DNA of 64,000 nucleotides from Escherichia phage EK010. Position numbers and translations under genes: made by a program. Each line of letters begins with the position of its first letter. Within the stretch, counting starts at the first letter, position 1. Positions 9,112-64,000 of the stretch are shown one piece after another. Under the pieces are notes generated by a model. The model had not been told where the DNA came from. It did not search any database and was given only the letters and a program-made list of their open reading frames with translations. The stretch lies in the sequence record NC_070981.1, one strand, 5' to 3'.

Positions 9112-9648
9112 ATGGAATGGAGAGAACTTCCCGGATATGAGGGACAGTATTCAATCTCTGATAAAGGGGATATCCGTAGTAATTACCGATGGTATCTTAA
9201 CCCTAAGACACTAACACGCCATAAGAAAGATCGTGAATTGATTATGACACCCAATGTTGGTTCAGCGGGTTATGCTCGAATCAAATTAAGTGATCAGATT
9301 TTTCATCCGTATCACAGATTGGTAGCTATTGTTTGGGTAAGCAATCCAGAAAACAAACCTTTCATCAACCATAAAGATGGAAACAAACTGAACAACAACC
9401 CTTCTAATCTAGAATGGGTTACTTGTCAGGAAAACAATATACATGCATATCAGACAGGTTTAAACTCTGGTATGCTAAGAGCAGAAACCCTTTCACATGT
9501 GTGGAATTTTATATCTCCCGAAGGGGTTCAAACCGAAATCACTAACCTTTGTAAATATTGTAGAGAGAATGATTTATCTAAGTCCTCTATGATAGCAGTA
9601 CACAAAGGAACTCAATATCAACATAAGGGTTGGAAAAGAAATGAGTAA
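9112..9648 (+). CDS. HNH homing endonuclease
   Basis: 'NHKDGNKLNNNPSNLEWVTCQENNIH' HNH motif; AAGGAG RBS; paralog of 20238-20732. Confidence 0.7.
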   Translation: MEWRELPGYEGQYSISDKGDIRSNYRWYLNPKTLTRHKKDRELIMTPNVGSAGYARIKLSDQIFHPYHRLVAIVWVSNPENKPFINHKDGNKLNNNPSNLEWVTCQENNIHAYQTGLNSGMLRAETLSHVWNFISPEGVQTEITNLCKYCRENDLSKSSMIAVHKGTQYQHKGWKRNE

Positions 9649-10303: not shown

Positions 10304-12094
10304 ATGTCAAAGATCATTTTGGGAGACACAGGCTGTAAAGAGTGTATCTCTCATGGTCGTGATAAGACCCGCAATCACATGATTCTCTTCCGAAATGAAG
10401 AGTCCGGTGAGGAGTGGGGTTCATGTAACAGATGTGGTGCGTATGAAATCTTCGAGAAAGGAACGACGCCCACTCCTAATGAAAAGAAAGAGCTGTCCCC
10501 TGAAGAACTCCGAGAAGTCTTAGACGATTGCTTAGAGCTTCCTCAGGGAGAGTTGACTCGTCGCTTAATTCCTAAAGCTGTATCTGAACGTTATGGATGC
10601 CGTATCGGTTTAAGCCAAACAGATGGTCAAACTCCTGACAGCTACTTCTTCCCTCGTGAACGTGATGGGAACATTGTTGGATATGAAGTAAAACTTCTAG
10701 ACAGCAAGAAGTTCTATTATGTAGGTAATGTGAAAGAAGCCGACTTGTTTGGTATGGCTCAAGCACAACGTGGTGACGTATACAACAAGAAACTCTTCAT
10801 CTTTGAAGATCCTCTCTCTTGTATGTCTGGGTTCCACGTACTTACCGCGTTTACAAACGCAACTAACATCAAACCTGCTTGCGTCTCTCTTCCGTTCGGT
10901 GCAGGTTCAATCTCTTCTGTATTATCAAGAAACCGTGATTTTATTAATGGTTTCGAGGAGATTGTACTCTGCATGGACAATGATGATGCAGGTGAGATTG
11001 CTTTAACTAAGGGTCGTTCTCTGTACCCGCATGTTAAGTTTGCAAGGATTCCAAAAGGTACGTTCACTTATAACGGACAAGAAAAGGAAATCAAAGATGC
11101 AAACGACATGTTACTTGCAGGGAGAGGTCAAGAGCTTTTCAACAATCTGAAATATTCAGCTAAGCGGGAATCTCCTGCTGGAGCTGTTACAGTTTTTGAT
11201 TGCCTCGAAGATGCTCTGAAGAAAGCGGAATGGGGTATCCCTTATCCGTGGAAAACTCTCAATGACATGACCTTTGGTATTCGTTGGGGAGAGATGGTTG
11301 CAATCGGTGGTGGTGTTGGTTCAGGTAAAACCTTAATCGCACATGAACTGGTAGCATGGCTTTGCCTTGAGCACGGTTTTAATGGTGGTGGCTTCTTCTT
11401 GGAAGAGAAGGTAGGCATGTCTGTTAAGAACATTGCAGGTAAATCCGCATCCATCCCATTCCACCGACCAGATGTTGAGTATGAAGAAAGTCAGCTACGA
11501 GATGAAGCACTTCGATACGCTGATAAGTTTTTCTTGTACGACAACTTTGGGCAGAATGAGTGGGAAGACATTAAGCAGTGTATTCGCTTTTGGGTAGTTG
11601 AGAATCAGTGTAAATTTATCATTCTTGATAACATCACTGCATTGGTATCTCACTTAACTCCGTCTGAGGTAAATACAGAAATCAGCAAGATTGCTTCAGA
11701 GCTTGCTGGTATGTGTAAGGAACTGGACTTCACTGCTTTTGTGTTATCTCACTTGAATGCTCCGGCGGGCGGTGCCCCTCACGAAGAAGGTGGTCAGGTT
11801 AAAGAAGTACAGTTTACTGGCTCACGTTCATTAATGCGCTGGTGTCAATGTATTATCGGTTTCGAACGTAATAAACAAGCGGATGGGTTAGGTAAAAACT
11901 TGTCAATCATACGTCTGCTCAAAGAACGTAACTACGGACAGACAGGGGTTTGCTATACCAAATACATTAACGAAACAGGTCGTCTTGTGGAACGAGAAGA
12001 TCATGAAGTTGATGAAGATAATCCGTTTACAGTCACCAATGGAGAAGATGCAGCTTCCTTACTTTCACAAGAAGGGGAGGCACGTCCATGGTAA
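10304..12094 (+). CDS. DNA primase-helicase (T7 gp4-like)
   Basis: N-terminal zinc finger 'CKECISHG...CNRCGAY', TOPRIM-like 'DNDDAGE', Walker A 'GGGVGSGKT'; AGGAGG RBS. Confidence 0.8.
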
Positions 12095-12636
12095 AGAAAC
12101 TGTATGCGTTTGATATTGAAGGTGATAACCTCTATGACGGTATTCAGAATGTCTGGTGTATATGGATATTTGATGTACTGTCTGGAGAACGGTGGGGGTA
12201 TCGCCCTCACCAAATTGAAGAAGCACTACACAAACTGAAAGAAGCTGATGTAGTAATAGGTCACAATATTATTGATTTTGACCTTCCTGCTTTGTTTAAA
12301 TTCTACTCTCATGTGATACCTTTTCGTTTTAATGTCTTTGATACCCTGTGCCTGAGTCGATACCTCAAGCCTGATCGTATTGGTGACAGTCCAGAATACC
12401 CCAAAGGCGACCCTAGACATGGACCTCGCGGTCATGGCCTCAAGCAATGGGGCGAATTTCTGGGAGAGCTGAAGGGTGATTATGGCGAACAGGAAGAAGC
12501 ATGGGATGCATTCACTGAAGACATGTTCACATATTGTGAGCAAGACGTTAACTTGACAGTTAAGGTTTACATGTGTCTTTGTCAAATGGCAGGATTTGAT
12601 TATAAGAATCCCCCATCTCTCAACTGGAAAATGTAG
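12088..12636 (+). CDS. DEDD-family 3'-5' exonuclease (candidate proofreading subunit)
   Basis: 'FDIEGD' (Exo I), '[11 protein letters not shown]' (Exo II), 'YCEQD' (Exo III); start overlaps helicase stop. Confidence 0.6.
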
Positions 12637-12638
12637 AA

Positions 12639-14099
12639 ATGATTAAGATTCCATTATCTGAATTGAACCTTCAAGAAGGAGAAGCCCTCAGTGTAGGGCT
12701 TGACCTGATTCGTAATTTGATCAGAGATAACGTAGTCCCTGATGGTATCTATCCTGTTATTGCAGGTGGTGCTATCCGTGATACGTTCTTCCAAAATCGA
12801 ACTCCGAATGATGTTGATATCTTCCTAGTTCAAGGAGGGCTTCGTTGGAACACTCGCCAGGAAAATAGCCCTGCTAACGTAGGTAATGCTGCACTGTTCC
12901 TTGACAACTTCTTATCTTGGACAGAAAGTAAGGGGCTTCAGGTTACATCTCGCCTAGTTCAGCCTGTTAACGGGACAACCTATGCTGAAGCGCTTTTCAC
13001 TTTCCAAGAGATTCTGGAAATTGAGATTGATCAAGTGAAGATTCAGATGATGATTAATCTCCCTCTGGATATGGATACTTTGAGTCGTCGCTTTCCTATG
13101 ATCTGTCAAGGGTTTATGACTCTTGGTGATTTGTATGTGTCAAACGAAGGTTTGTTTGCAATGTCATACACTCGTGACATTCCTGTGGTATCTAGTCGTG
13201 AAATGAAGTATGTTCACAAGAAGTGGCCTGAAGCAACTGTTGCAGTTTATAGCAGTTCTACCGAATATATGCACCTTGCAATGGGAGCTTTCGGTGAGCC
13301 AGAAGTTCACCTGATTAGTGATTTAGTTGGACCTATGGCTGGTGTAAATTTATATCAGAATCAGCGTCGTCATTATACCCTGAAGATGATGGAAACTATA
13401 TTAAACATTCCTCAGGAAAGGGGTCGTAGCTATCTGGACGAGGAAGTTAACCTACAGACAGAATGGTCTAGTGGATTAACCACTATAGGTGCTGAAGCAA
13501 TTACGCAGCCTTGGACTCCGGGAACTAACAGACGAGATCTTCAAGCTTTTAATGAAGAAACTTCTCGAACTGTTCGAGGAGGTGTTGTAGGGTATAACGT
13601 ACAACCTCATGAAAGACCTCGTGACACTTTTACTGGCAGTTTTGGTAGTGCACACTCTTCTGGAATGGATACTCGTACATGGCATGTCCAAGGAGGAACT
13701 GCTCGTCCTATTCCTTCTCCGTCAATGGATGATTTGCAGCGTTCTCGTCGTTCATGGGAAACAGTAAGCTCTGTTGTTCAGGGTCTACGTGCTAGTGATG
13801 TAGAACGTGTAGAAGTTGGCGATGTGCTGGAAGATGGATTGCTGGCGATAGCGGCTCGTGAAGCTGCTCGTACTGGCTTTGCATCTTTAGCTAATGATGC
13901 TAACGAAGCTCCTCGCCCTCGCCGTCGTAGCGGTTTAGCTCACTCTAACACTGAACTAGGTTCAGAACTCCGATCTGCTGCTCGTGAGCTATCTGGTGAG
14001 CTTCACAACAACCTAGCAGGTGTTACACTATCTCGTGAAACAGCTCGTAATATGATTAATAATTTGGCATCATCTGTACAAGGAAACAGAAACTCATGA
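12639..14099 (+). CDS. Pol-beta-superfamily nucleotidyltransferase (CCA-adding/poly(A) polymerase-like head) with Ser/Arg-rich low-complexity C-terminus
   Basis: 'IAGGAIRDTFF...NDVDIFL' matches GGAVRD + DxD catalytic motif; C-terminal half GC-rich and compositionally distinct. Confidence 0.5.
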   Translation: MIKIPLSELNLQEGEALSVGLDLIRNLIRDNVVPDGIYPVIAGGAIRDTFFQNRTPNDVDIFLVQGGLRWNTRQENSPANVGNAALFLDNFLSWTESKGLQVTSRLVQPVNGTTYAEALFTFQEILEIEIDQVKIQMMINLPLDMDTLSRRFPMICQGFMTLGDLYVSNEGLFAMSYTRDIPVVSSREMKYVHKKWPEATVAVYSSSTEYMHLAMGAFGEPEVHLISDLVGPMAGVNLYQNQRRHYTLKMMETILNIPQERGRSYLDEEVNLQTEWSSGLTTIGAEAITQPWTPGTNRRDLQAFNEETSRTVRGGVVGYNVQPHERPRDTFTGSFGSAHSSGMDTRTWHVQGGTARPIPSPSMDDLQRSRRSWETVSSVVQGLRASDVERVEVGDVLEDGLLAIAAREAARTGFASLANDANEAPRPRRRSGLAHSNTELGSELRSAARELSGELHNNLAGVTLSRETARNMINNLASSVQGNRNS

Positions 14100-14629
14100 G
14101 TCTTTTAGGTTCTCAAGAATTACACAGCGTTATTGATAGTGGCTTTTTAGATGCGGAGCATAAATATGTTAACGCTGCTAGTGTGGATATCCGTATTGGT
14201 GATACTATCCTTGTTGAAGAACAGGCTGATGGTATTGTTGACATTGATGCTAAAGAAAACCTCAAGTGGAAAGAAGTGAAAATCCCTGAAGATGGCATTG
14301 TCATTACTCCGGGACAGTTCTTCTTAGCTCACTCTATGGAAGAATTTAACCTTCCAGATAACATCTCAAGCCTGTTTGTACTCCGCTCCTCGATGGCTCG
14401 TTGTGGTTTGAACCACCTACATGCTGGTTGGGCTGATGCAGGGTTTAACAGCAGTAAGCTAACCTTTGAGTTCCATAACGTTACCCACAATCACAGCTTA
14501 CGAGTTCGTGCTGGGATGCGTGTTGGTCAAATGGTTATGTTTGAACACTCTCACGCTGGTGATGATTCCTATGCAGTGAAGGGTCGTTACAATGGCAGCA
14601 ATGGTGTAGTTGCTTCTAAAGGTGTATAA
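14096..14629 (+). CDS. dcd: dCTP deaminase
   Basis: 'VDIRIG', 'LRSSMARCGL', 'GWADAGFNSSKLTFEFHN' align with bacterial Dcd motifs. Confidence 0.7.
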   Translation: MSLLGSQELHSVIDSGFLDAEHKYVNAASVDIRIGDTILVEEQADGIVDIDAKENLKWKEVKIPEDGIVITPGQFFLAHSMEEFNLPDNISSLFVLRSSMARCGLNHLHAGWADAGFNSSKLTFEFHNVTHNHSLRVRAGMRVGQMVMFEHSHAGDDSYAVKGRYNGSNGVVASKGV

Positions 14630-14632
14630 TTG

Positions 14633-14845
14633 ATGGAGTTTGGAACAATGAAAAGACGTTGGGTAGTTCGTGTTCACTGGAGCAGTGGTGCAGAGTCAAT
14701 GGGTATTAGAAACACCCGTCAAGAAGCTCGCGCTCATAAGAAGTTCTTGTTAAGTTGTGAAAGCACAATTAATAAGATCACTATCCACAAAGCTCAAGAC
14801 TTTAAATCAGGTCGTTTCTATATCAGCGGAAAGGTACATTACTAA
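14633..14845 (+). CDS. small protein, paralog family member 1 of 4
   Basis: Shares W-x-V-x-V-x-W ... RQEAR ... K-I ... (V/I)HY pattern with 14845, 16709, 16929 ORFs. Confidence 0.5.
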   Translation: MEFGTMKRRWVVRVHWSSGAESMGIRNTRQEARAHKKFLLSCESTINKITIHKAQDFKSGRFYISGKVHY

Positions 14846-15051
14846 TGGCTAGATTATGGGCAGTTCGCGTTAAATGGGCTAACAAAGACCTTGGTGGTGA
14901 TTGTATTAAATTATTCGACACTCGACAAGAAGCTCGTCTTGCTAAGAAAGCTACAAAAGCTTTAGGTCTCGCTGAAAAAGTAGAGATTCATCGTTGGTTT
15001 CAAAATGACAATAACAGTGCAGGATCCTTGACTAGCAAGGTTCATTACTAG
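14845..15051 (+). CDS. small protein, paralog family member 2 of 4
   Basis: Same pattern; start overlaps upstream stop (TAATG). Confidence 0.5.
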   Translation: MARLWAVRVKWANKDLGGDCIKLFDTRQEARLAKKATKALGLAEKVEIHRWFQNDNNSAGSLTSKVHY

Positions 15052-15075
15052 TTGGTAGTAGATATGATAACTCTC

Positions 15076-15084
15076 AAATGTATA
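15076..15084 (+). promoter_or_regulatory. promoter-like motif AAATGTATA (one mismatch to TAATGTATA)
   Basis: Intergenic, 37 nt upstream of ATG 15122. Confidence 0.35.
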
Positions 15085-15121
15085 TACAGTATAAGAATAT
15101 TGTATGAAACAGGAGAGAGTT

Positions 15122-15451
15122 ATGTTAGATTTGAGTAAAGTGGCCCCGCCATCTGAAGAGATTAGCAAAGCTAAAGTTATGCAGCAGTTCTATCATCGGG
15201 ATATGCTTGGTCGTTATATCAAGAATCGTGATGTTGTTGCATGGTCTATTGGAAATCAAGGTTATCTTCTCAAAGTGTTGCAAGTTACTGGCTCAACAGC
15301 CAAGCGAGTCAAAGTCTATGACCCTGAAATGGGGCGTTCTAAATCAGTAGACCCTCAGAATTGCATTGTTATCACACAACAGGTCATGGATAACATTGCT
15401 CGTAATGTAGCTAATTCAACTAACTTAGAAGGGGATGCACCTAATGCATAA
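15122..15451 (+). CDS. hypothetical protein (109 aa)
   Basis: Internal ATG with AGGAGAG RBS; preceded by AAATGTATA motif. Confidence 0.55.
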   Translation: MLDLSKVAPPSEEISKAKVMQQFYHRDMLGRYIKNRDVVAWSIGNQGYLLKVLQVTGSTAKRVKVYDPEMGRSKSVDPQNCIVITQQVMDNIARNVANSTNLEGDAPNA

Positions 15452-16010
15452 TAATGTCTTCGACTTACCTGAACTAACACGAGTGGGTTCTAGCAACCCA
15501 TTCTCTACTACTGACTCTTCTATTTCTCGTCTTGAGGGAATGAATAAACTGATTAGTGGTAACAGCTTAGAACACATCTTATGTGATGTGCAAGCTAACC
15601 TTGAACTTCTACACATCAAAGCAAAGAACTACCACTGGAACGTCTCTGGAGCTGGTTTCCAAGGTGTTCATGGTATGTTCGATGAACTAGAAGATTATGC
15701 TCGTGAGGCAGGCGACCGAATAGCAGAGCGTATGCGCTTCCATTGTGTTAAGGTGGATGCCACTGCCAGTAACTATTTAGGTCACGCTTGGTTCCGAGAA
15801 GGTAACGCTGATCTCGACATGGACGGTATGCTTTCCGACATGTGCATGACTCTTATGTGTATCATTGAGAAGATGGATGAGTTTGATTCAGACTTGTGCA
15901 CCTATCCAGTGGACCAGAGTATGCTTCAAGAAATTAATGAAGGTCTTGGCAAGTTCTGTTACTTCGTCAAGAGCAACATGTCCCACTCCAGTGGTGATGT
16001 GTCTTACTAA
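15435..16010 (+). CDS. Dps-like ferritin (DNA-binding ferroxidase fold)
   Basis: 'NYHWNVSGAGFQGVHGMFDELEDYAREAGDRIAERM' matches the Dps signature; start may be ATG 15444. Confidence 0.6.
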   Translation: MHLMHNNVFDLPELTRVGSSNPFSTTDSSISRLEGMNKLISGNSLEHILCDVQANLELLHIKAKNYHWNVSGAGFQGVHGMFDELEDYAREAGDRIAERMRFHCVKVDATASNYLGHAWFREGNADLDMDGMLSDMCMTLMCIIEKMDEFDSDLCTYPVDQSMLQEINEGLGKFCYFVKSNMSHSSGDVSY

Positions 16011-16019
16011 TCAAACCTC

Positions 16020-16060
16020 CGCCCTGTCTCGTTTGTTCAAGAGGTGGGGCGAACTTTTTT
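16020..16060 (+). terminator. rho-independent terminator candidate after Dps-like gene
   Basis: Imperfect ~11-bp stem (three G-U pairs) followed by TTTTTT. Confidence 0.4.
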
Positions 16061-16074
16061 ATAAGGATGTGAAT

Positions 16075-16254
16075 ATGTTTTCAGCAATCGTATGGTCTGT
16101 GTGGGCAATTCTTGTTGGCGGTATCGTTTATCTGGCTCAGAAGCAGATGCTTAAAGAGAATCCGAATGATGCTAAAGCCATTAAACATGGCAGCATTGCT
16201 CTGGTAGTCTTCTCTGTTGTTATTCCTTTCCTTCTTCACCTATGGACTGCATAA
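16075..16254 (+). CDS. small membrane protein (two predicted TM helices)
   Basis: Internal ATG with AAGGA RBS; hydrophobic stretches; follows a hairpin + T-run. Confidence 0.5.
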   Translation: MFSAIVWSVWAILVGGIVYLAQKQMLKENPNDAKAIKHGSIALVVFSVVIPFLLHLWTA

Positions 16255-16430
16255 TGAAATTAAACCTCCCTGAAGAGCTACAAGCACATGCTATTATTGT
16301 TAGTGGCTGTGTAATGGGTCTTGGTCAGACGAAGAAGATTGCCCATGATTTAGCAAAAGGGCAGTATAAATCTTTTATTGTTGTTCCTGCTACCCAACGT
16401 CATATCAATCTGTTTATTAACAAGGAATAG
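16254..16430 (+). CDS. hypothetical protein (58 aa)
   Basis: ATG overlapping upstream stop (TAATG). Confidence 0.4.
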   Translation: MKLNLPEELQAHAIIVSGCVMGLGQTKKIAHDLAKGQYKSFIVVPATQRHINLFINKE

Positions 16431-16431
16431 A

Positions 16432-16707
16432 ATGAGTAAAGTGATTAAGTTTTATAGTAACTCCTGTGCTCCGTGTGCAGCTATGGCTCCTGTGTTTAAG
16501 AAGGTTGTGGCTGACTATAACGTTGAAGTTGAAGAGGTAAACATCTCTGAAGGTGATGGTCGAGAGCGGGCCATTGAGTATGGTGTTCGCAGTATCCCAG
16601 CCTTCATAGTCCCTGATAATAACAGTGGTGCTCACTATAGTTTGTCAGGTATGCAAACTGAATCTAATCTCCGTGCATTTTTAGACACGGCTCTGAAAGG
16701 TAAGTAA
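16432..16707 (+). CDS. thioredoxin/glutaredoxin-like protein
   Basis: 'SCAPC' CxxC active-site-like motif and 'VRSIPAF'; AAGGA RBS. Confidence 0.5.
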   Translation: MSKVIKFYSNSCAPCAAMAPVFKKVVADYNVEVEEVNISEGDGRERAIEYGVRSIPAFIVPDNNSGAHYSLSGMQTESNLRAFLDTALKGK

Positions 16708-16708
16708 T

Positions 16709-16921
16709 ATGTCCGAATGTAAATGGGCTTTACAAGTAAATTGGGGTGGTAATAGAAGTGACATTGCCGCCACTATCTCGTTACAACGAACCCGTGAAGC
16801 TGCTCGTACACTTCGTCGTATGTTTATCAGTGGTGGTCAGAAACCATGTGATGTTAAAATCTACAAAGTTAAACATACCAACGGTGTTATGCAAATTGAC
16901 ACCAACGTAAATTATCGCTGA
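16709..16921 (+). CDS. small protein, paralog family member 3 of 4
   Basis: W..V.W ... TREAAR ... C-terminal NYR. Confidence 0.5.
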   Translation: MSECKWALQVNWGGNRSDIAATISLQRTREAARTLRRMFISGGQKPCDVKIYKVKHTNGVMQIDTNVNYR

Positions 16922-16928
16922 GGCAGAT

Positions 16929-17144
16929 ATGGAAAAGAAACCTTGGGTTACTTTTTGGGTAGTTAAGTGGTTTAATTTTGATAGTACAATCCCTAGCTTC
17001 TCAACATACTCCACACGGAAAGAGGCTCGTCGGTTTAAGCGAGCTTTAAAAATTGCTAATACCGGTGCTTCTAAGATTACAATCCAGAAAGGGATTGAAA
17101 CAGAAAGCGGAAGCAACATGGTTTATAAAAAGATTCACTATTAA
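16929..17144 (+). CDS. small protein, paralog family member 4 of 4
   Basis: W..V.W ... RKEAR ... C-terminal IHY. Confidence 0.5.
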   Translation: MEKKPWVTFWVVKWFNFDSTIPSFSTYSTRKEARRFKRALKIANTGASKITIQKGIETESGSNMVYKKIHY

Positions 17145-17151
17145 GGAAGAA

Positions 17152-17619
17152 ATGATACAAGACGACTTGGAATACAACCCTAAGACTGGAGACTTCTTCT
17201 GGAAGAACACAAAAGGTCGAAGGGTTAAAGGAAATCAAGCTGGGTATGTATCTTCTCTAGGTTATCGTTACATTGAGCATGAAGGGAAAAGCTACAGAGC
17301 TTGTCGCCTTGCTTGGTTCTTTGTTCATGGAAAGTTTCCTGAGTTTGAAATTGACCACATCGACCAGAACAAACTTAATGACTCAATTGATAACCTAAGA
17401 GATGTGAATCCATCTACTAACTGCCATAACAGAAGGCAGTACGATGTTGATAACAAGATAGGAAATCTTCCTAGAGGTGTGTATCTTCGTAAGACAGCTT
17501 CTGGTGATAAATATCGAGCCATTATCGGCGTCAAAGGTAAGAATATATACTTAGGGACTTTTGCTTCTTGTGAAGAGGCAGAAGAAGTTTACAACAAGGA
17601 GAAGTTGAAGTATGTCTGA
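17152..17619 (+). CDS. HNH homing endonuclease with AP2-like DNA-binding domain
   Basis: 'IDHIDQNKLNDSIDNLRDVNPSTNCHN' HNH motif plus AP2-like 'GV...GDKYRAIIGVKGKNIYLGTF'; AAGGAAG RBS; directly upstream of ThyX. Confidence 0.65.
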   Translation: MIQDDLEYNPKTGDFFWKNTKGRRVKGNQAGYVSSLGYRYIEHEGKSYRACRLAWFFVHGKFPEFEIDHIDQNKLNDSIDNLRDVNPSTNCHNRRQYDVDNKIGNLPRGVYLRKTASGDKYRAIIGVKGKNIYLGTFASCEEAEEVYNKEKLKYV

Positions 17620-18262
17620 TTTTTTAAAAGCAACACTGGTAGAGCACATGGGTTCCGACAAATCTGTGGTCAATGCAGCAAGGGTTTCCTTTGGTGTGAC
17701 ACGAGATGGTGATCTGAACGAACGTGACGAGCGGTTGATTAAATTCTTAGCTCGGGAACGTCATGTGACTCCTTTTCGACACCCTCAAATCACCTTTCGG
17801 TGTAAGGCTCCCATTGCAATTGCTAGACAACTCAATAAACACCAAGTTGGATTCTCATGGAACGAAATGTCCCGGCGGTATAAAGATGGAGCAGTTGAAC
17901 TCTTCATCCCTAAAGAGATTTTTGAAAGACCTTCGGACCTCCATGCAGGTGCGGGGAATCTCCTTACCACAGGAGCACAAAACTCTGCACTAGTTCTGAT
18001 TAATCGGGCATACGAAACAGCTCTTGAGTCGTATGATGAATTGATTAAGTTTATCGCTCCAGAGCAAGCTCGATTTGTTCTACCTCAAGGTATGATCACG
18101 GAGTGGGTGTGGACAGGTTCTTTATATGGCTGGTCAGAGTTATGTCGTCAGCGACTGTCCGACCATGCTCAGTATGAAGTACGAGTGTTCGCATCAACGG
18201 TCGATGAAGAGCTTCGTAAACTTTTCCCAATCTCATGGGATGCACTACGTGAAGCCCACTAA
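17612..18262 (+). CDS. thyX: flavin-dependent thymidylate synthase (ThyX family)
   Basis: 'LVEHMGSD...AARVSF', 'KAPIAIARQ', 'NEMSRRY', 'SDHAQYEVR' match ThyX conserved blocks. Confidence 0.65.
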   Translation: MSDFLKATLVEHMGSDKSVVNAARVSFGVTRDGDLNERDERLIKFLARERHVTPFRHPQITFRCKAPIAIARQLNKHQVGFSWNEMSRRYKDGAVELFIPKEIFERPSDLHAGAGNLLTTGAQNSALVLINRAYETALESYDELIKFIAPEQARFVLPQGMITEWVWTGSLYGWSELCRQRLSDHAQYEVRVFASTVDEELRKLFPISWDALREAH

Positions 18263-18437
18263 AGTATGTAGCTTCTGTCAAAAGCAGAAGCTTCTTATCA
18301 ATTTCAAGCTGAACGAGGAAACAGGTTTGGGTCATGCTTTTTGTCATGATTGCAGGCACTACCTTGAACAGAAGCAACACATAAACTGGTTGCATTACTA
18401 CCATCCAACAACATTCAAATTTAAGGTTGTTAAATGA
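18240..18437 (+). CDS. small Cys-rich protein (C-x2-C ... C-x2-C)
   Basis: Internal ATG of track ORF; 'CSFC...CHDC'; overlaps ThyX 3' end. Confidence 0.35.
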   Translation: MHYVKPTKVCSFCQKQKLLINFKLNEETGLGHAFCHDCRHYLEQKQHINWLHYYHPTTFKFKVVK

Positions 18438-18637
18438 GAACATTGTGGACTCTTGACTGTCAAGATGATGAAGGAGAGCGTTGGACTTGGAAATATTTCC
18501 TAGATAAACCAACACCTGATAACCCTGCTTTAGATTTTACTTCATATGAAGATGCTAAGAAGTTAGTAAACGGAGAAAAGGTTTGGTCTCCGGATGATGA
18601 AGTTCAATACTTTTTAACAGAACGGAAATTTTCATAA
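18434..18637 (+). CDS. hypothetical protein (67 aa)
   Basis: ATG overlapping upstream stop. Confidence 0.45.
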   Translation: MRTLWTLDCQDDEGERWTWKYFLDKPTPDNPALDFTSYEDAKKLVNGEKVWSPDDEVQYFLTERKFS

Positions 18638-18957
18638 TGATTGACAGTAATACATTTAGGACTGGTAACGGAAACGAGATTAGTCCTGCTGAAGTGATTA
18701 AACGACACAGAACGCAGATGCTTATCCATTCCTATCTGTATTATTGGTTGGATGACCCAATCTGGTCTGATGACAAATGGCAACAAGTGGCTGATGACTT
18801 AACCACTTTGCAAGAGATGTATCCTGAGCCTATCGGATTCTTTGATTCAGAGTTCAATGGATGGAATGGCTCCACTGGTATGCATCTTCCTCATGACGAG
18901 CGTATAGCTTGTATGGCTACTGAAGTATACCGTTTACATAAGGACAAATCAATCTGA
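18637..18957 (+). CDS. small protein resembling the N-terminal Ia (NMN-binding) domain of NAD-dependent DNA ligase
   Basis: 'HSYLYYWLDDPIWSDDKW...LTTLQEMYPEP' aligns by eye to LigA '[21 protein letters not shown]...LETKHPEL'; no KxDG adenylation motif nearby. Confidence 0.4.
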   Translation: MIDSNTFRTGNGNEISPAEVIKRHRTQMLIHSYLYYWLDDPIWSDDKWQQVADDLTTLQEMYPEPIGFFDSEFNGWNGSTGMHLPHDERIACMATEVYRLHKDKSI

Positions 18958-19139
18958 AATGTTTTAAATGTGAATCAACTCTTCTCCATTTGGACTCGAA
19001 AGTAATACGGGAGCTTGCCAAAGGCTCCCCGACTAAAGGGAAGAATAAGAAGTTTGTCGAAATTAAGGTTATAGGTATCCATTGCTCAGAGTGTAAATCC
19101 TGTAGCTTCTTATATGAAGAACACGGAGGTAGGAAATGA
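18942..19139 (+). CDS. candidate zinc-ribbon protein with no canonical start codon
   Basis: 66-codon open frame filling the gap before phoH, ending in TGA that overlaps the phoH ATG; C-x2-C-x37-C-x2-C-x2-C; only ATC/CTG available as in-frame starts; -1 frame relative to upstream ORF. Confidence 0.3.
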   Translation, partial: GQINLKCFKCESTLLHLDSKVIRELAKGSPTKGKNKKFVEIKVIGIHCSECKSCSFLYEEHGGRK

Positions 19140-19873
19140 GTCGTAGAGAATCTCGGAAAGCATCACGGAGAGAATTACGTCGTGAAGCTCTCGTCACCAA
19201 GAAAGGAAAGCGGGAATTTGAAGAAGTAGTTCTTGCTAAGCCGGTAGTACCTCAGAACCAATTCCAGAGTGAGCTGCTTAATGCAATTAAAACCAAACAG
19301 GTTGTATTCACAGATGCTCCTGCTGGTTGTGGTAAGACCTTCGTAATCACTTCTACAGTGATTGATGCTCTGAAGAGTGGGAAGATTGAGAAGATTATCC
19401 TAAGCCGACCTGCTGTTGGTATGGGTAATAGTCTTGGATTACTTCCCGGTGGACTTCGTGAGAAGTTTGAACCATACCTAATGCCAATCGTTGATGTTAT
19501 TACTCAGCGCTACGGTAAAGGTTTCTACGAATGTCAAGTAGGTAATGGTAATATTGAGTTCGTACCTCTGGAATATCTACGTGGTCGCTCGTTCAACGAT
19601 GCTATCGTGATTGTTGATGAGTTCCAGAACACTACTCCTGATGAAGCATATTCAATCATGACACGTCTTGGTGAAACCTCTCAGATGTTCTGCATGGGGG
19701 ACACTAACCAGCACGACATGCGTGGTGAGAGCGGTCTTGATTGGGCTACTGATTTCATCTACCGTCACCAGTTATTTGAATTTGCCGCTCTAGTAGATGG
19801 CGAATCAGATGATATTGTTCGTTCAGGTTTCTGTAAAGCTATTGTTAAAGCAATGGAATCTGAAAAATCATAA
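19136..19873 (+). CDS. phoH: PhoH-like ATPase
   Basis: Walker A 'APAGCGKTF', Walker B 'IVDEFQN'; GGAGG RBS. Confidence 0.7.
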   Translation: MSRRESRKASRRELRREALVTKKGKREFEEVVLAKPVVPQNQFQSELLNAIKTKQVVFTDAPAGCGKTFVITSTVIDALKSGKIEKIILSRPAVGMGNSLGLLPGGLREKFEPYLMPIVDVITQRYGKGFYECQVGNGNIEFVPLEYLRGRSFNDAIVIVDEFQNTTPDEAYSIMTRLGETSQMFCMGDTNQHDMRGESGLDWATDFIYRHQLFEFAALVDGESDDIVRSGFCKAIVKAMESEKS

Positions 19874-19876
19874 ACA

Positions 19877-19885
19877 TAATGTATA
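19877..19885 (+). promoter_or_regulatory. promoter-like motif TAATGTATA
   Basis: Intergenic, 35 nt upstream of ATG 19921. Confidence 0.45.
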
Positions 19886-19920
19886 CTCCTTAGTGTACAC
19901 TGATATATTAAGGAGTTATG

Positions 19921-20241
19921 ATGACCGATAAGGCGAAACGTGATTATGCACAAGAACGAAGAACTGCAATCGCAAGGGGTGAAACCGGCGTTGGTAGCAA
20001 GAGCGGAGATGCTCAGCGCCACCGTGCACGTCGCATCGTTGAAAAGCGCGATGGAAAAGCTGCTGTCCGAGGTAAAGATGTTGGACATAAACGATCAATC
20101 AAGTCGGGAGGTTCTAATGCGTCAAGTAACTTACGTGTTGAATCAGTCTCTCGAAATCGCTCGAACGGCGGCAAAAGTGGAGATCGTGCTGGAAAATCAG
20201 CAGGAGGAGTCAAATCGAGAAAAGGCGCTCTAAGTCAATGA
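19921..20241 (+). CDS. basic Arg/Lys/Gly/Ser-rich protein (106 aa); region also open in a second + frame
   Basis: AAGGAG RBS 5 nt before ATG 19921; TAATGTATA motif 35 nt upstream; alternative ORF 19940-20233 in another frame. Confidence 0.45.
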   Translation: MTDKAKRDYAQERRTAIARGETGVGSKSGDAQRHRARRIVEKRDGKAAVRGKDVGHKRSIKSGGSNASSNLRVESVSRNRSNGGKSGDRAGKSAGGVKSRKGALSQ

Positions 20242-20732
20242 TTCCGATTTCCGACTACTTGTCATACGACCCGGATACTGGTTTATTGATTTTTACCGAA
20301 TCTAGCTCTAAAGGTAAGAAATGGAATAAATCACATCCGGGAAAAGTGGCAGGGGCTGTTGATGAAAAAGGATATATCAGAGTTTACTTTGAAGGGAGGA
20401 GATGGAAAGCTCACAGACTTATAGCTTCTGTGCTCATACCTAACCCTGAAAATAAACCACAAATTAACCACATCAATGGTAACAAAAGTGATAATAGGTT
20501 AGAGAACCTAGAGTGGGTCACTGGTCATGAAAATATACAACATGCTTTTTCAACAGGTCTTAATGTTGGTAAAGAGAGGGATGCTAATGGAATGACTAAA
20601 ATCAACACATTGGATGTGGAGAAGATCAAGAGTTTATATGTTAAAGGCTCTACCACTCACGGAACAAGAGCACTAGGTAAGATGTTTGGCGTAAGTCACA
20701 CAGCTATCCGACATGCTTTAAGCTCAAGTTAA
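20238..20732 (+). CDS. HNH homing endonuclease
   Basis: 'NHINGNKSDNRLENLEWVTGHENIQH'; paralog of 9112-9648; followed by terminator. Confidence 0.7.
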   Translation: MIPISDYLSYDPDTGLLIFTESSSKGKKWNKSHPGKVAGAVDEKGYIRVYFEGRRWKAHRLIASVLIPNPENKPQINHINGNKSDNRLENLEWVTGHENIQHAFSTGLNVGKERDANGMTKINTLDVEKIKSLYVKGSTTHGTRALGKMFGVSHTAIRHALSSS

Positions 20733-20735
20733 TAT

Positions 20736-20768
20736 AAGGCTACCCATTTCGGGTGGCCTTTTCTTTTA
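20736..20768 (+). terminator. rho-independent terminator
   Basis: AAGGCTACCC-ATTTC-GGGTGGCCTT stem-loop then T-rich run, right after HNH gene stop. Confidence 0.6.
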
Positions 20769-20788
20769 TGTAACCTAAGGTAATAAAT

Positions 20789-21040
20789 ATGTCTAAAGTA
20801 ACTTACATCACTGTAACTGATTTCCTCCCTTCTCTGAACACAACTGAGAGCTATACTTTTCCTGTAGAAAATGTTACAAGCTCTGTTGAGATGATTCAGT
20901 TTAACAAAACAACAGCTCGTACTAATGTAGCCCTTCGTGGTCCTGATGGCAAGTTCATCTCCTTCCGTGATAAGGCTGTTCCTAAGTGTATTGCTAAGTC
21001 TATTGAAAATCTGAAACCTTTCCCTAACTTTGGTGCATAA
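20789..21040 (+). CDS. hypothetical protein, tandem paralog A
   Basis: Shares 'TARTNV..RG.DGKF.S.RD...NLKPFP' with next ORF. Confidence 0.5.
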   Translation: MSKVTYITVTDFLPSLNTTESYTFPVENVTSSVEMIQFNKTTARTNVALRGPDGKFISFRDKAVPKCIAKSIENLKPFPNFGA

Positions 21041-21041
21041 T

Positions 21042-21299
21042 ATGAAGATTAGCTTAATCCAAATTCGTGATCATCTCTTTAATGGTGACGCTCAGACTCA
21101 TGACTACAAGGTTAATCAAGGACAACACCCTACCAACCATCTTATTGGAGGGATTTCTTTATTGCCTAATAAAACAGCACGGACTAATGTAATGATTCGT
21201 GGTAAGGATGGTAAATTCCTCTCTTATCGTGATCCTGAAATCTGTGCTGATGTTCGTACAGCCATGAACAACCTAAAACCATTCCCGACAGTGGAGTAA
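21042..21299 (+). CDS. hypothetical protein, tandem paralog B
   Basis: Track ORF starts at TTG 21030; first ATG at 21042; same motif as paralog A. Confidence 0.5.
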   Translation: MKISLIQIRDHLFNGDAQTHDYKVNQGQHPTNHLIGGISLLPNKTARTNVMIRGKDGKFLSYRDPEICADVRTAMNNLKPFPTVE

Positions 21300-21302
21300 G
21301 TT

Positions 21303-21656
21303 ATGCCAGTACCTCAACGCCTAGAACGTCACTGCGTTCTCAAATGGGATAATATTCATGATAACCTCTCTATTCAAGAGTTTCGTCAGTTTATCGAATT
21401 GACAGCGAAGATTAACCGAAACCAACCAGCTCGAAACTTTGTGGTGGTTAGTGATAAGTATCCAGAGCTGTATGAGCAGGTGTGGGGGATGAAACTAGCA
21501 CAGGTTCAGAGGAATAGTAATGAACGGAGAGAAGCTCGTAGACAGCGAGCAGAAGATGTTCCAGCAGTCTTTTATGTGGATGAATTGGCTGATTCATATG
21601 AAGCTTTAGATATTGTTGAAGACAACCAAGCATTCACAGATTTAATATACCAATAA
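21303..21656 (+). CDS. hypothetical protein (117 aa)
   Basis: ATG ORF with GGAG RBS. Confidence 0.55.
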   Translation: MPVPQRLERHCVLKWDNIHDNLSIQEFRQFIELTAKINRNQPARNFVVVSDKYPELYEQVWGMKLAQVQRNSNERREARRQRAEDVPAVFYVDELADSYEALDIVEDNQAFTDLIYQ

Positions 21657-21672
21657 CTATAAGGAGTGGGTG

Positions 21673-23517
21673 ATGGATAACCCTGATAAGTTACCTTTCA
21701 TAACGGAGATGACAGTCGCTGATATAATCTCAAAACAAGCGAAGCATGGAGTCAACTTCAACAGAAGAAACGCTCGGTGGTTTGTTCACCTTCTCAAAGA
21801 GATTATTGTCAATATTGATAAAGAACTGATTCCTCTCCTCCCCAAAATGCGGGTGGATGGTTCAACTTATGCTAAGCCTTTTAAGAAATCAGGTGCTTTA
21901 CAGAAGTGGCCTCAACTCTATTGTGATAGGGTTGGTCTTAAAAGAGAAGATATCGGTGGGGCGTTTACTTGCGTTGAGTATGTAGACTTTGACCCATCAA
22001 AAGATGCACGTATCAAAGAAGCCTTGATGGATGAAGGTTTTATACCTCCAGAGTGGAATTATTCTAAGAAACCTTGGAATACTTTTGAAATTCGTAAAGC
22101 TATGAAGAAGTATGGTACATACTCTGCATGGTATTCTGCTTGGATTCGAGGTAACGCTAAAGAGAAACAGACAGCAGAGATGATAGATGCTGATATCCGA
22201 AGGTTTTTGGATAAGCACTTCCGTTATCACACTGTCAACTATATGAAAGCCTATGTCAGCGGTTTAGGTCTTAACCCTAACAGGAAGAAGCCTGTAACCT
22301 TTGATGAAATCAAAAAAGCTTTGGCTACATCAAACAAGTGGCCTACAGCCCCTACAAACCTTGAGGAGACTCTTGAAGAGGGGCTTGGGGGTGAGCTAGG
22401 GGGTGTAGGAAGTTTGCTTAAGAGACGCGTTGTAGCGGCTCACAGGCTAGGTTTGATTAGCGGGCTTATCGACAAGGAACGTAAAGATGGTAAGTTGTCC
22501 GCCGAAGCTAATAGCTGCGCTACTCCGACATTTCGTTTTAAACATCGCATTGTTGTTAATATTCCTTCTCGCGGTTTGTTTGGTCACGAGTGCCGCAGTC
22601 TTTTTCAATCTGACTATTCCTCAGACGATAGTCATAACCATCCTTTCATCATTACCAACCATATCCCTGATGGGTGTTACGTACGAAAGGGTACTAACAT
22701 TATCTACGAAATGGGAAAACCGGGCAAGAAAGACAAACCAATAGGTGCTTATAAATTTTATGTACCTGCTGGTCGTGAAATCTTCTTAGGTTACGATGGC
22801 TCTGGTCTTGAGCTGAGGATGCTTGCTCATTACCTTATCAAAGAATGTCGTGAGATGCTCGCTGAAGCAGAGCAGGAAAACAACCCAGCTAAGAAACGAG
22901 AAGCTGAACGCGGTCTAGCTTCTGCTGTTATGTACAGAGATATTCTTTTAGAAGGAGATATTCACTCACACAACCAAAAACTTGCTGGCCTTCCTACTCG
23001 TGATAATGCTAAAACGTTTATCTACGCATTCAACTACGGAGCTGGTGACGCTAAGTTAGGAAGCATCGTAGGTGGTGGCTCTGATGAAGGGGCTGTCATG
23101 AGGGCAAGATTCTTAGCAGAGAATCCTTGTATTGCAATTCTTATTGAACGTATGACAGAGAAAGCACAAAGTGGATACATCTACGGTGTGGATGGACGTC
23201 GTATTACAATGAGAAGGGATGCAACTGGAAAGGTTATGGTTCATAAAGCCTTAAACACCCTCTTACAGAGCGCTGGGGCGATTGTTATGAAGTATGCAAT
23301 GCTATTCCTTAATAAATGGATTGAGCGTGATGGTGTTCGTTGTGCGAAGGTTATTGACATGCATGATGAAGGCCAGTTCACTGTACATCGTGACGATGTT
23401 AACAAACTTCGTACCCTCACTGAAGAGTGTGTTCGTAAAGCAGGTGAATACCTCAAAATGGAATGTCCTCTTGCATCTGATTGTAAGATTGGGTTAAACT
23501 GGAATCACACTCACTAA
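21673..23517 (+). CDS. family-A DNA polymerase, polymerase domain only
   Basis: Motif A 'YDGSGLELRMLAHY', motif B 'RDNAKTFIYAFNYGAG', motif C 'VIDMHDEGQF'; ATG 21673 with AAGGAG RBS (track start is GTG 21670); no exonuclease motifs in this ORF. Confidence 0.8.
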   Translation: MDNPDKLPFITEMTVADIISKQAKHGVNFNRRNARWFVHLLKEIIVNIDKELIPLLPKMRVDGSTYAKPFKKSGALQKWPQLYCDRVGLKREDIGGAFTCVEYVDFDPSKDARIKEALMDEGFIPPEWNYSKKPWNTFEIRKAMKKYGTYSAWYSAWIRGNAKEKQTAEMIDADIRRFLDKHFRYHTVNYMKAYVSGLGLNPNRKKPVTFDEIKKALATSNKWPTAPTNLEETLEEGLGGELGGVGSLLKRRVVAAHRLGLISGLIDKERKDGKLSAEANSCATPTFRFKHRIVVNIPSRGLFGHECRSLFQSDYSSDDSHNHPFIITNHIPDGCYVRKGTNIIYEMGKPGKKDKPIGAYKFYVPAGREIFLGYDGSGLELRMLAHYLIKECREMLAEAEQENNPAKKREAERGLASAVMYRDILLEGDIHSHNQKLAGLPTRDNAKTFIYAFNYGAGDAKLGSIVGGGSDEGAVMRARFLAENPCIAILIERMTEKAQSGYIYGVDGRRITMRRDATGKVMVHKALNTLLQSAGAIVMKYAMLFLNKWIERDGVRCAKVIDMHDEGQFTVHRDDVNKLRTLTEECVRKAGEYLKMECPLASDCKIGLNWNHTH

Positions 23518-27956: not shown

Positions 27957-28415
27957 ATGTCAGGAAAACTAACGTGGAGAAGCTCTGAAAAGAAGAGCAA
28001 TCAATGGAACTCTAGGTTTGCTGGAAAAGAGGCTGGCTGTTTGATAGATGCTGGATACATTGTTGTGAGGTTTAATGGGAAAGCACATAAAGCTCACAGA
28101 GTGGCTTGGTATTTAAAAACAGGAGAAATCCCTGATACTGATATCGACCACAAAGATCAGATTAAATCTAACAATTCTTGGACCAACCTGAGAAAAGCAA
28201 CCAATGCGCAGAATCAGATGAATACATCTGCTCAGAAGAATTCTATAACAGGTATAAAAGGTGTCGGATATAGAAAGGATGTTAACAAGTGGACTGCTCG
28301 AATAGGGTTTGAGGATAAAGTTATTTGGCTTGGTTTTCATGATACACTGGAAGGAGCTAAGTGTGCATATAAAGAAAAAGCTATTGAGTTGTACGGGGAT
28401 TTTGCTAGCTTTTAG
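27957..28415 (+). CDS. HNH homing endonuclease with AP2-like domain
   Basis: 'IDHKDQIKSNNSWTNLRKATNAQN' plus AP2-like region; conserved N-terminal motif continues upstream of the first ATG. Confidence 0.6.
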   Translation: MSGKLTWRSSEKKSNQWNSRFAGKEAGCLIDAGYIVVRFNGKAHKAHRVAWYLKTGEIPDTDIDHKDQIKSNNSWTNLRKATNAQNQMNTSAQKNSITGIKGVGYRKDVNKWTARIGFEDKVIWLGFHDTLEGAKCAYKEKAIELYGDFASF

Positions 28416-29617: not shown

Positions 29618-30213
29618 TGAGTAAACCATTAGTAGTAATTCTGAATGGACCACCGGGTTGTGGTAAAGATACAATCGCTAATGCTTGGCTAGAATTCACT
29701 AAAGAGAACATTGAATTTAAGCCACATATAAAGGCTTTTAAGGAGCCTATGTACCGAGTTGCTGCTGCTGCATTAGGTATTCCTATTGACGAGTTCATGG
29801 AGCTGTATAGCGACCGTGAGTGGAAAGAACGAAGCCGTCCTGAATGGGGCGGTAAGTCAGTTCGAGATTTGATGATTGCAACTAGTGAGAGCTACTTGAA
29901 GCCAATGTTTGGTGATACCTGTATGGGTAAGTTGGCTGTTAGTAGTATCAAACGACAACTGTTAGGACAGAAAGATGTTATCGTCTTCTCTGATGGTGGA
30001 TTCAAAGCAGAAGTTTCAGAACTGGAAGAACAATTCCATGTTCAAGTAGTTCAGATTCTTCGTGATGGTTGCACTTTTGAAGGAGACTCTCGGTCTTACA
30101 TCGAAGGCAGTCAGAGAAACACATATTACCTAGTAAACGATTCTACTGTAGAAGATGCAATAGACTATTTAAATTGGATTGTTGTACGGACACGGAGAGA
30201 TCTCTATGTCTGA
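29617..30213 (+). CDS. P-loop nucleotide kinase (dNMP-kinase-like)
   Basis: Walker A 'LNGPPGCGKDT'. Confidence 0.5.
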   Translation: MSKPLVVILNGPPGCGKDTIANAWLEFTKENIEFKPHIKAFKEPMYRVAAAALGIPIDEFMELYSDREWKERSRPEWGGKSVRDLMIATSESYLKPMFGDTCMGKLAVSSIKRQLLGQKDVIVFSDGGFKAEVSELEEQFHVQVVQILRDGCTFEGDSRSYIEGSQRNTYYLVNDSTVEDAIDYLNWIVVRTRRDLYV

Positions 30214-31027
30214 TGTAATTTATCCTGAAGTAGCAATTGTGGATGCAGATGTTCTGCGATATGAAGTCGGTGCTCTTACACAAGAGCATCCTTTTCTAGA
30301 CACAGGTCGTGTTCCAGTTGATTATGGATTCTTGATTGAACGACTTCAACATAAAATAGATGTAATCATTGCAAGGTCTGGTTGCGAGAAAACAATCTTT
30401 TACTTCAGCGAAGGTGGTAATTTTCGGTTTGATATTGCTAAGCAGCAAGGTTATAAAGCTAATCGACCACTGGGAGAAAGACCTCATCATTGGCAGAACG
30501 TTAGTGATTATATTAAAGAAAATTACGAGTATGTAGAAGTTTTTGGGAGAGAGGCAGATGATGCCTTAGCTGAAAGACAGAGACGTGATAAGAACACTAT
30601 CATTTGCACCCGTGATAAAGATTTGTTAATCACCCCCGGATGGCATTACCGTTGGGCTTGCGGGGAGAGACAGAAAGAAGTACCTCCTCATTATGTATCA
30701 GAGGAAGTAGCATGGCAGAACTTCTTCTACCAGATGTTGATTGGGGATAGGACAGATAATATTCCCGGATGTGGTGAGAAGGTTGAAATGATGTGGGGTG
30801 GCAACCTAGTGATGCGTCGTCAAGGTGTTGGCAGCAAGGCTGCAATCGAACTTATTGAGAAGGTATTCGATAAGTGGACTCTTTATCATATTATACGAAT
30901 GGAATACTATAAGAGGTTCGAGGAAGAAGCAGAAGCTAAGATGTTAGAAAACGCTCGATTGCTCTTCGTTGGACAAGCTGAAGGCGACCTCTTTGATTGG
31001 TCGTGGTTAGATAAAACTTGGGAATAA
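30206..31027 (+). CDS. 5'-3' exonuclease / flap endonuclease
   Basis: 'CTRDKDLLI' resembles the Pol I 5'-exo 'TGDKDLLQL' motif; ATG 30206 with GGAGAG RBS. Confidence 0.55.
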   Translation: MSDVIYPEVAIVDADVLRYEVGALTQEHPFLDTGRVPVDYGFLIERLQHKIDVIIARSGCEKTIFYFSEGGNFRFDIAKQQGYKANRPLGERPHHWQNVSDYIKENYEYVEVFGREADDALAERQRRDKNTIICTRDKDLLITPGWHYRWACGERQKEVPPHYVSEEVAWQNFFYQMLIGDRTDNIPGCGEKVEMMWGGNLVMRRQGVGSKAAIELIEKVFDKWTLYHIIRMEYYKRFEEEAEAKMLENARLLFVGQAEGDLFDWSWLDKTWE

Positions 31028-63494: not shown

Positions 63495-64000
63495 TATCCA
63501 CCCATTTACTATTCCTAACCTTACCACAGTCTGCGCATCTCCATGTACTCTTGTAATAAGCGTGTAACCGTTCATCACCTCTTGATATCCGGATTGGATA
63601 GTACTCGTGATTACATTTGAATTGCTTAATTAGTAACTTAATCTTCCACATAAAATAGTTCCTTATTCTTATATATAAGAGTTTAAAATTTCAATTTGAC
63701 CGAGTGGACCTAGCCTCTCCGAGCGCGTTTCCTAAAAAGGGGGAGTCCTCATTTAAAAAAGGGTTATTACCAATGCAATTGCCTTTAGGAAATCAACCAG
63801 CCTTTAAGCCCTAAGCCCTAGCTCCCTTGCTACCAGTGGCATACCTGCCCATAAATACCCTACCCATTGATATTAGACATGCATTATTTACCCATGTATA
63901 TCTAACCAGTATTCTCCCACCCGTATTTCTCTTACTCATGTTAAGGAAGGATGAAAGGCTAGAGACCTTCTACACTAAGATTGGAATGGATGGTAAGAAG

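Follow-up and report, generated by a model that had tools for sequence, protein, structure and literature searches.

The window discussed here, a stretch of 64,000 nucleotides (nt) of Escherichia phage EK010 (NC_070981.1), carries a family-A DNA polymerase encoded in two parts, a 3'-5' exonuclease and a polymerase without exonuclease domain, on open reading frames (ORFs) that we call exo and pol.

12088-12636, + strand: exo, stand-alone DEDDy 3'-5' exonuclease of 182 amino acids (aa), equivalent to about residues 1-195 of T7 gp5
21673-23517, + strand: pol, exonuclease-less family-A DNA polymerase of 614 aa, equivalent to T7 gp5 residues ~200-704 with lineage-specific insertions

As judged by alignment, exo and pol tile one T7-like polymerase, broken at the linker between its two domains. 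We suggest that an ancestral single-chain polymerase of T7 type underwent fission and that the detached exonuclease most likely rebinds the polymerase non-covalently and proofreads, a reading that we would put at a probability of about 0.72. The split is real, but it is a published and already annotated trait of a well-sampled phage group, and proofreading in trans is likewise a reading already in use in annotation and the literature, at which we arrive here by inference.

The exonuclease and polymerase ORFs

A preliminary description of the window had placed motifs Exo I to Exo III in the 182-aa ORF at 12088-12636, and all three are present: FDIEGD at residue 8, HNIIDFD at 59 and YCEQD at 149. 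In an alignment that took in T7 gp5 and ten homologues, D9 and E11 of Exo I fall on T7 D5 and E7, Exo II on T7 HNGHKYD (D65), and Y149 and D153 of Exo III on T7 Y170 and D174 (YNVQD). These residues, together with H59, N60 and D65 of Exo II, are invariant in the 36 stand-alone exo homologues over which invariance was scored. The conservation of D9, E11, D65, Y149 and D153 down to an identity of 35% indicates selection for nuclease activity. Exo III of the form Y-x3-D is typical of the DEDDy branch, the polymerase type, and H-x4-D of the DEDDh branch with RNase T, oligoribonuclease and DnaQ/epsilon. Exo has the first form and is thus placed in DEDDy; a DEDDh nuclease of the RNase T, Orn or DnaQ kind is ruled out.

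The match of exo to Pfam DNA_pol_A_exo1 (PF01612) is a narrow pass at 24.2 bits over the gathering threshold of 23.6, and no NCBIfam model matches it. It falls into PHROG families named 'DNA polymerase exonuclease subunit' with values of 2.6e-67 and 3.1e-37. The only sequence matches found by phmmer in PDB were to T7 gp5 (residues 4-142, E 4e-8), with none to RNase T, Orn or epsilon. The AlphaFold2 model of exo (pLDDT 92, pTM 0.89) gives the same picture, as its best 27 Foldseek matches in PDB are all T7 DNA polymerase chains (E ~1e-9, TM 0.60-0.76), followed by the exonuclease domains of family-B polymerases and DpoZ, and the top 50 include no RNase T, oligoribonuclease or epsilon. Taken over sequence and fold, the part of T7 DNA polymerase to which exo is related is residues ~4-190. 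With regard to a grouping of exo with RNase T and oligoribonuclease, which the preliminary description had raised as the outcome that would count against it, exo groups with polymerase proofreading domains. By homology exo is a complete DEDDy 3'-5' exonuclease domain, that is a proofreading domain encoded separately, and is predicted to be active as such.

In the case of pol, the longest possible ORF begins at a GTG at 21670, and the annotated start is the ATG at 21673, 7 nt after AAGGAG. DNA_pol_A (PF00476) is its sole Pfam domain (86.2 bits against a cut-off of 34.3; 2.9e-24). Motif A (DGSGLELR, at 375), motif B (RDNAKTFIY, at 443) and motif C (HDE, at 564) correspond to T7 gp5 positions 475, 518 and 653, and the similarity to gp5 has E values of 4e-33 by phmmer and 1e-38 by BLASTP. 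T7 gp5 also gives the best Foldseek matches (E ~1e-26) to the AlphaFold2 model of pol, which has a pLDDT of 90. By motifs A, B and C and by fold, pol is a family-A DNA polymerase. The earlier reading of this ORF as having motifs A, B and C and lacking Exo I to III holds: the exo-family profile, which scores 103 bits on T7 gp5, scores -2.0 bits on pol, which is no match, and the N-terminus is modelled as two long helices and not as the beta-alpha DnaQ fold, so that neither motif, profile match nor DnaQ-type fold was found where an exonuclease might have been overlooked. Compared with T7 and the fused relatives pol has insertions at about residues 135-225, 326-370 and 392-420, and these account for a size of 614 aa in a protein that has no exonuclease domain. 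The single-chain architecture of T7 gp5 is excluded for this phage, with pol having no exonuclease domain and exo ending at the domain boundary.

The pol gene is itself interrupted in some relatives. In several Kuravirus-like relatives (P0050, P0052; 449-457 aa, 77-87% identical) the pol ORF stops inside motif B, ending in ...RDNAKTFIYAFN and ...RDNAKTFI, which suggests a second insertion site for a mobile element or intron, in the O-helix; pol of the window is uninterrupted at the equivalent site (about 23020-23035). The related phages ECBP2 (locus L002; 15025-15631) and SU7 (locus L003; 15046-15652) have a 607-bp insert in the pol gene, equivalent to 23364/23365 of the window. It falls between pol nucleotides 1692 and 1693, or H564 and D565 of the motif C HDE, contains an HNH endonuclease ORF and resembles a group I intron at a level below the Rfam threshold (27 bits, E 0.004). 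The allele of the window lacks this insert, and a literature search found no paper linking Kuravirus, DNA polymerase and intron.

For the break point we aligned concatenated exo and pol with T7 gp5 and six fused relatives of 600-633 aa. The junction is at the inter-domain linker, immediately ahead of EH..A.I...Q...GV.F, the conserved helix with which the polymerase domain starts, and the comparison with gp5 proposed in the preliminary description thus has the halves tiling gp5 and meeting at that linker. On PHROG phrog_17 (DNA polymerase) exo spans positions 670-826 and pol 837-1233. The nearest fused relatives (P0152, P0145, P0156 and others, 600-633 aa) are similar to both ORFs of the window.

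A search of 1.84 billion representatives with the exo-family profile gave 4,476 exo relatives, of which the best 150 were examined. Among these 150 the closest are either stand-alone homologues or N-terminal domains of family-A polymerases. Eighty are at least 550 aa long and a PolA domain is present in all 80; another 47 are under 300 aa, 42 of them without a polymerase part. With one exception among the 150, the exo match begins no later than about residue 45. In a crude neighbour-joining tree of the exo domains of the 150, in which some of the short proteins may be fragments, exo of the window falls within a stand-alone cluster and other stand-alone forms are scattered among fused ones. One fused protein (P0272) is nested in the stand-alone cluster, probably as a tree artefact because its polymerase domain is very divergent (23% identity). 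Several clusters of exo and of pol homologues report identical lengths for the longest contig (81,643; 86,560; 88,363; 100,903; 112,127; 20,510), which points indirectly to the presence of a stand-alone exo and an exo-less pol on the same contigs.

Gene order, the proposed fission and the alternatives

The region 10304-23517, in which every gene is on the + strand, is 100% identical to Escherichia phage E20-1 (OP293233.1; Caudoviricetes, Gordonclarkvirinae, Kuravirus) and shares 90-96% identity with about 20 further phiEco32-like coliphages. The features that bear on the origin of the split are these:

10304-12094, + strand: T7 gp4-like primase/helicase (Pfam DnaB_C 2.7e-10, and Toprim_2)
12639-21656, + strand: block of 21 genes between exo and pol (from ORFs, Pfam and record annotation)
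20736-20760, + strand: terminator-like hairpin with a 10-bp stem and T-run, from a consensus scan, its function being putative

The first gene is annotated as DNA primase/helicase in E20-1, ECBP2 and SU7. Its stop overlaps the exo ATG by 7 nt (ATGGTAA), and GGAGG lies 9-13 nt upstream of that ATG. Overlap and GGAGG are consistent with the translational coupling of exo to the primase/helicase gene put forward in the preliminary description, and coupling is what we infer from them. From the exo stop to the pol start there are 9,036 bp, with 21 annotated coding sequences in the identical E20-1 record. The block holds genes for a nucleotidyltransferase, dCTP deaminase, small paralogue families, a ferritin-like protein, thioredoxin, ThyX, a stand-alone ligase Ia domain, PhoH, two HNH endonucleases and others. 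The earlier account of about 9 kb of metabolism genes and HNH endonucleases between the two ORFs is borne out by the dCTP deaminase, ThyX and two HNH_3 genes.

In split lineages the order, on one strand, is primase/helicase, exo (overlapping or abutting), cargo and pol. A LUZ24-like contig (L006) has 2.3 kb of cargo. In a contig that is distantly Kuravirus-like (L007) the cargo takes up 3.2 kb, with dCTP deaminase, ThyX and a ligase Ia domain in it, and in the window it takes up 9.0 kb. The exo start overlaps the primase/helicase stop in UFV-P2 (26 nt) and L006 (56 nt) also. A fused arrangement, which comparison with related genomes was expected to reveal if it existed, was found in locus L005 with the order primase/helicase, a 70-aa ORF and then exo-pol, which is the gene 4 to gene 5 order of T7. 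What the orders in split and fused loci suggest, on the simplest reading, is that an insertion at the linker split the gene and that the inserted block then grew.

The same split arrangement is present in the phiEco32-like phages (Gordonclarkvirinae: Kuravirus and Suseptimavirus, with phiEco32, ECBP2, SU7 and YF01) and in the phiEco32-group relatives 7-11, Privateer, Vp_R1 and BUCT695; ECBP2 and SU7 differ from the window in the 607-bp motif C insert and not in the split. The LUZ24-like Pseudomonas phages (Bruynoghevirus: LUZ24, PaP3, tf and UFV-P2) have the same fission, annotated as 'DNA polymerase part I / part II', and the same order of primase/helicase, 3'-5' exonuclease (171 aa), small genes and polymerase (~545 aa). 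Their polymerase has ~41% identity to pol over the full length and is ~70 aa shorter, and the gap is just ~2.1-2.3 kb, with small ORFs in place of the nucleotide-metabolism genes. In UFV-P2 part I (171 aa) is the next gene after the primase/helicase, with part II (546 aa) 2.1 kb further downstream.

T7 gene 5 DNA polymerase is the closest solved structure for both halves and has the exonuclease and polymerase catalytic residues in common with them, including at pol Y451 the tyrosine of motif B at T7 position Y526. A gp4-like primase/helicase adjoins in both phages. However T7 has both domains in one chain of 704 aa, whereas the window has two ORFs, the insertions in pol and a phage-encoded thioredoxin. 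Separate polymerase and proofreading chains are well known from E. coli DNA polymerase III, in which the polymerase DnaE (alpha) and the exonuclease DnaQ (epsilon) are separate polypeptides acting as a complex. The likeness is one of principle, as DnaE is of family C and not A, epsilon is DEDDh where exo is DEDDy, and there is no homology at family level.

We favour fission, and propose that an ancestral family-A polymerase, with an N-terminal DEDDy proofreading domain and a polymerase domain, would have been split at the inter-domain linker. The exonuclease half would have stayed beside the primase/helicase gene, overlapping its stop codon, and the polymerase half would have come to lie 9 kb downstream on the same strand, with nucleotide-metabolism and mobile genes filling the space between, a block of unequal length from one related lineage to another. 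Exo, with its five catalytic residues kept, would most likely bind pol non-covalently to give a two-domain enzyme like T7 gp5, in which the exo subunit would remove misincorporated 3' nucleotides. The homology of the two halves, their domain content, the break point, the conservation of the catalytic residues and the synteny are matters of observation.

Several points weigh against a rejoined enzyme. A literature search found neither biochemical nor genetic evidence for association of exo with pol or for mismatch editing by exo, and no biochemical test of a split phage PolA or of proofreading in trans. The hairpin at 20736-20760 lies between the two genes, so that they may have separate transcripts and unequal yields of protein; the SU7 record annotates a terminator at the equivalent position. 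A scan for sigma-70 promoters gave fewer sites than in shuffled controls and is uninformative. The exo gene is also linked to the primase/helicase gene and not to pol, and this linkage and the hairpin argue against a fixed 1:1 complex.

The same observations can be taken to mean that exo no longer proofreads but has a role of its own, in trimming of 3' ends in recombination or repair, degradation of host DNA or processing of genome ends, with pol replicating unedited. In keeping with this, DEDDy domains occur also in the non-polymerase nucleases RNase D and WRN, the genes are 9 kb apart with the hairpin between them, and the literature search found no experiment linking the two proteins. However the closest relatives of exo by sequence and fold are proofreading domains attached to polymerases and not free nucleases, exo seems to be accompanied by an exo-less polymerase in every lineage examined, and the conserved tail of exo and head of pol map to the former linker. 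We think a separate role unlikely. Physical association of exo with pol, and proofreading by it, are on these sequence relationships the likely outcome.

It is also conceivable that exo belongs to the primase/helicase module, as a stoichiometric partner of the gp4-like protein that serves any polymerase at the fork and is not a fixed subunit of pol. The start/stop overlaps in the window, UFV-P2 and L006 would fit, as would the adjacency of the two genes across lineages, but that adjacency is more simply the ancestral gene 4 to gene 5 synteny persisting after fission, fused L005 and T7 have the same gene order, and there is no sign of an interaction surface; we regard such a partnership as very doubtful. 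A variant that stays with fission, and which we hold distinctly unlikely in its entirety, treats the break as a growing site of cargo insertion. A single linker insertion in a gene 4/gene 5-type module would have made the split, and the gap would have expanded from ~2 kb (LUZ24-like) to 3 and then 9 kb (Kuravirus) by gain of nucleotide-metabolism genes and homing endonucleases. Exo, by then translationally coupled to the primase/helicase, would follow the helicase and not the polymerase in its dosage and perhaps in its recruitment. That exo and pol are rejoined by RNA or protein splicing, or that the split is an artefact of assembly or annotation or marks a pseudogene, is hardly credible. A paper on a LUZ24-like phage does call the two parts 'exons', and the ECBP2 and SU7 pol genes do have a group I intron-like insert elsewhere, but 21 independent protein-coding genes lie between the parts, and exo and pol each have their own Shine-Dalgarno sequence and start codon. 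The same split is in ~100 phage records and many metagenome contigs, and an assembly artefact can be rejected. A split intein was rejected also: on alignment with fused relatives there are no extra residues at either side of the junction, and the end of exo and start of pol are within a few residues of the linker.

Other genes of the region

The remaining genes that we refer to are as follows:

12639-14099, + strand: 'nucleotidyltransferase' of 486 aa (RefSeq; PHROGs phrog_12715), after a 2-nt gap from the exo gene
14648-14845, 14845-15051, 16709-16921 and 16929-17144, + strand: four small paralogous ORFs of 65-71 aa, with W..V.W...TR.EAR..K...I.K and C-terminal (V/I)(H/N)Y in common
15435-16010, + strand: ferritin/Dps-like protein (Pfam, E 5e-8)
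16432-16707, + strand: thioredoxin (Pfam Thioredoxin, 1.2e-12)
9112-9648, 17053-17619, 20238-20732 and 27957-28415, + strand: four free-standing HNH_3 homing-endonuclease genes of the replication region, one with NUMOD4 and one with an AP2 domain
18637-18957, + strand: ORF of 106 aa, made up solely of the NAD+-binding Ia domain of LigA-type DNA ligase (Pfam Nlig-Ia, E 1e-33)
20789-21040 and 21030-21299, + strand: tandem paralogous small ORFs just upstream of the pol gene (36% identity, E 3e-15)
30179-31027, + strand: separate FEN-like 5'-3' exonuclease (Pfam 5_3_exonuc_N at 1.2e-5, below cut-off; PHROG exonuclease at 3.3e-60; weak NCBIfam matches)

The thioredoxin is speculatively a processivity partner of pol, by analogy with T7 gp5 and host thioredoxin, and the same hypothesis has been raised for the related phage Privateer (PMC7881722). 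The E20-1 record labels this gene 'holin' and the gene at 15435-16010 'integrase', names that look wrong as the Pfam matches are to thioredoxin (E 1e-12) and ferritin/Dps-like proteins (E 5e-8). The FEN-like exonuclease is a third activity of Pol I type on a gene of its own, as in T7 gene 6, and in the YF01 paper the 5'-3' exonuclease is separately encoded as gp27 (PMC9965538).

No Pfam or NCBIfam model matches the 486-aa protein, which appears disordered in a C-terminal half with many S, R and G residues. The tandem ORFs upstream of pol have ARTNV.(L/I)RG.DGKF.S.RD...NLKPFP in common. Presence of the HNH_3 genes varies among close relatives, with ECBP2 having none at the position of 20238-20732. 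The ligase-like ORF has no adenylation domain, although relatives annotate it as 'DNA ligase', and there is a weak equivalent of it just upstream of the pol gene in L007.

Annotation and significance of the split

The E20-1 GenBank record names the exo orthologue 'DNA polymerase' and RefSeq ECBP2 names it 'DNA polymerase exonuclease subunit'. The polymerase and 3'-5' exonuclease genes are reported as separate in all phiEco32-like phages, their relatives and LUZ24-like phages (PMC9965538, PMC3517423), and in all members of the phiEco32 group the polymerase, 5'-3' exonuclease and 3'-5' exonuclease are each separately encoded (PMC9965538). A passage in PMC3517423 cites the original phiEco32 paper (Savalia et al. 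2008) for the split. With regard to the genome as a whole, the last ~227 bases of the window (63774-64000) run past position 1 of the linear E20-1 record, and the window is therefore a differently permuted or longer copy of that genome.

As a discovery the split has little weight, since GenBank and RefSeq already annotate it and papers on phiEco32, LUZ24 and Kuravirus phages describe it. Its value is as a natural experiment, in which the proofreading domain of a working replicative family-A polymerase is a separate chain. It may be of use in studying the exchange of primer ends between exonuclease and polymerase sites and in building polymerases with adjustable fidelity, and if exo were dosed with the helicase, this would allow tunable fidelity.

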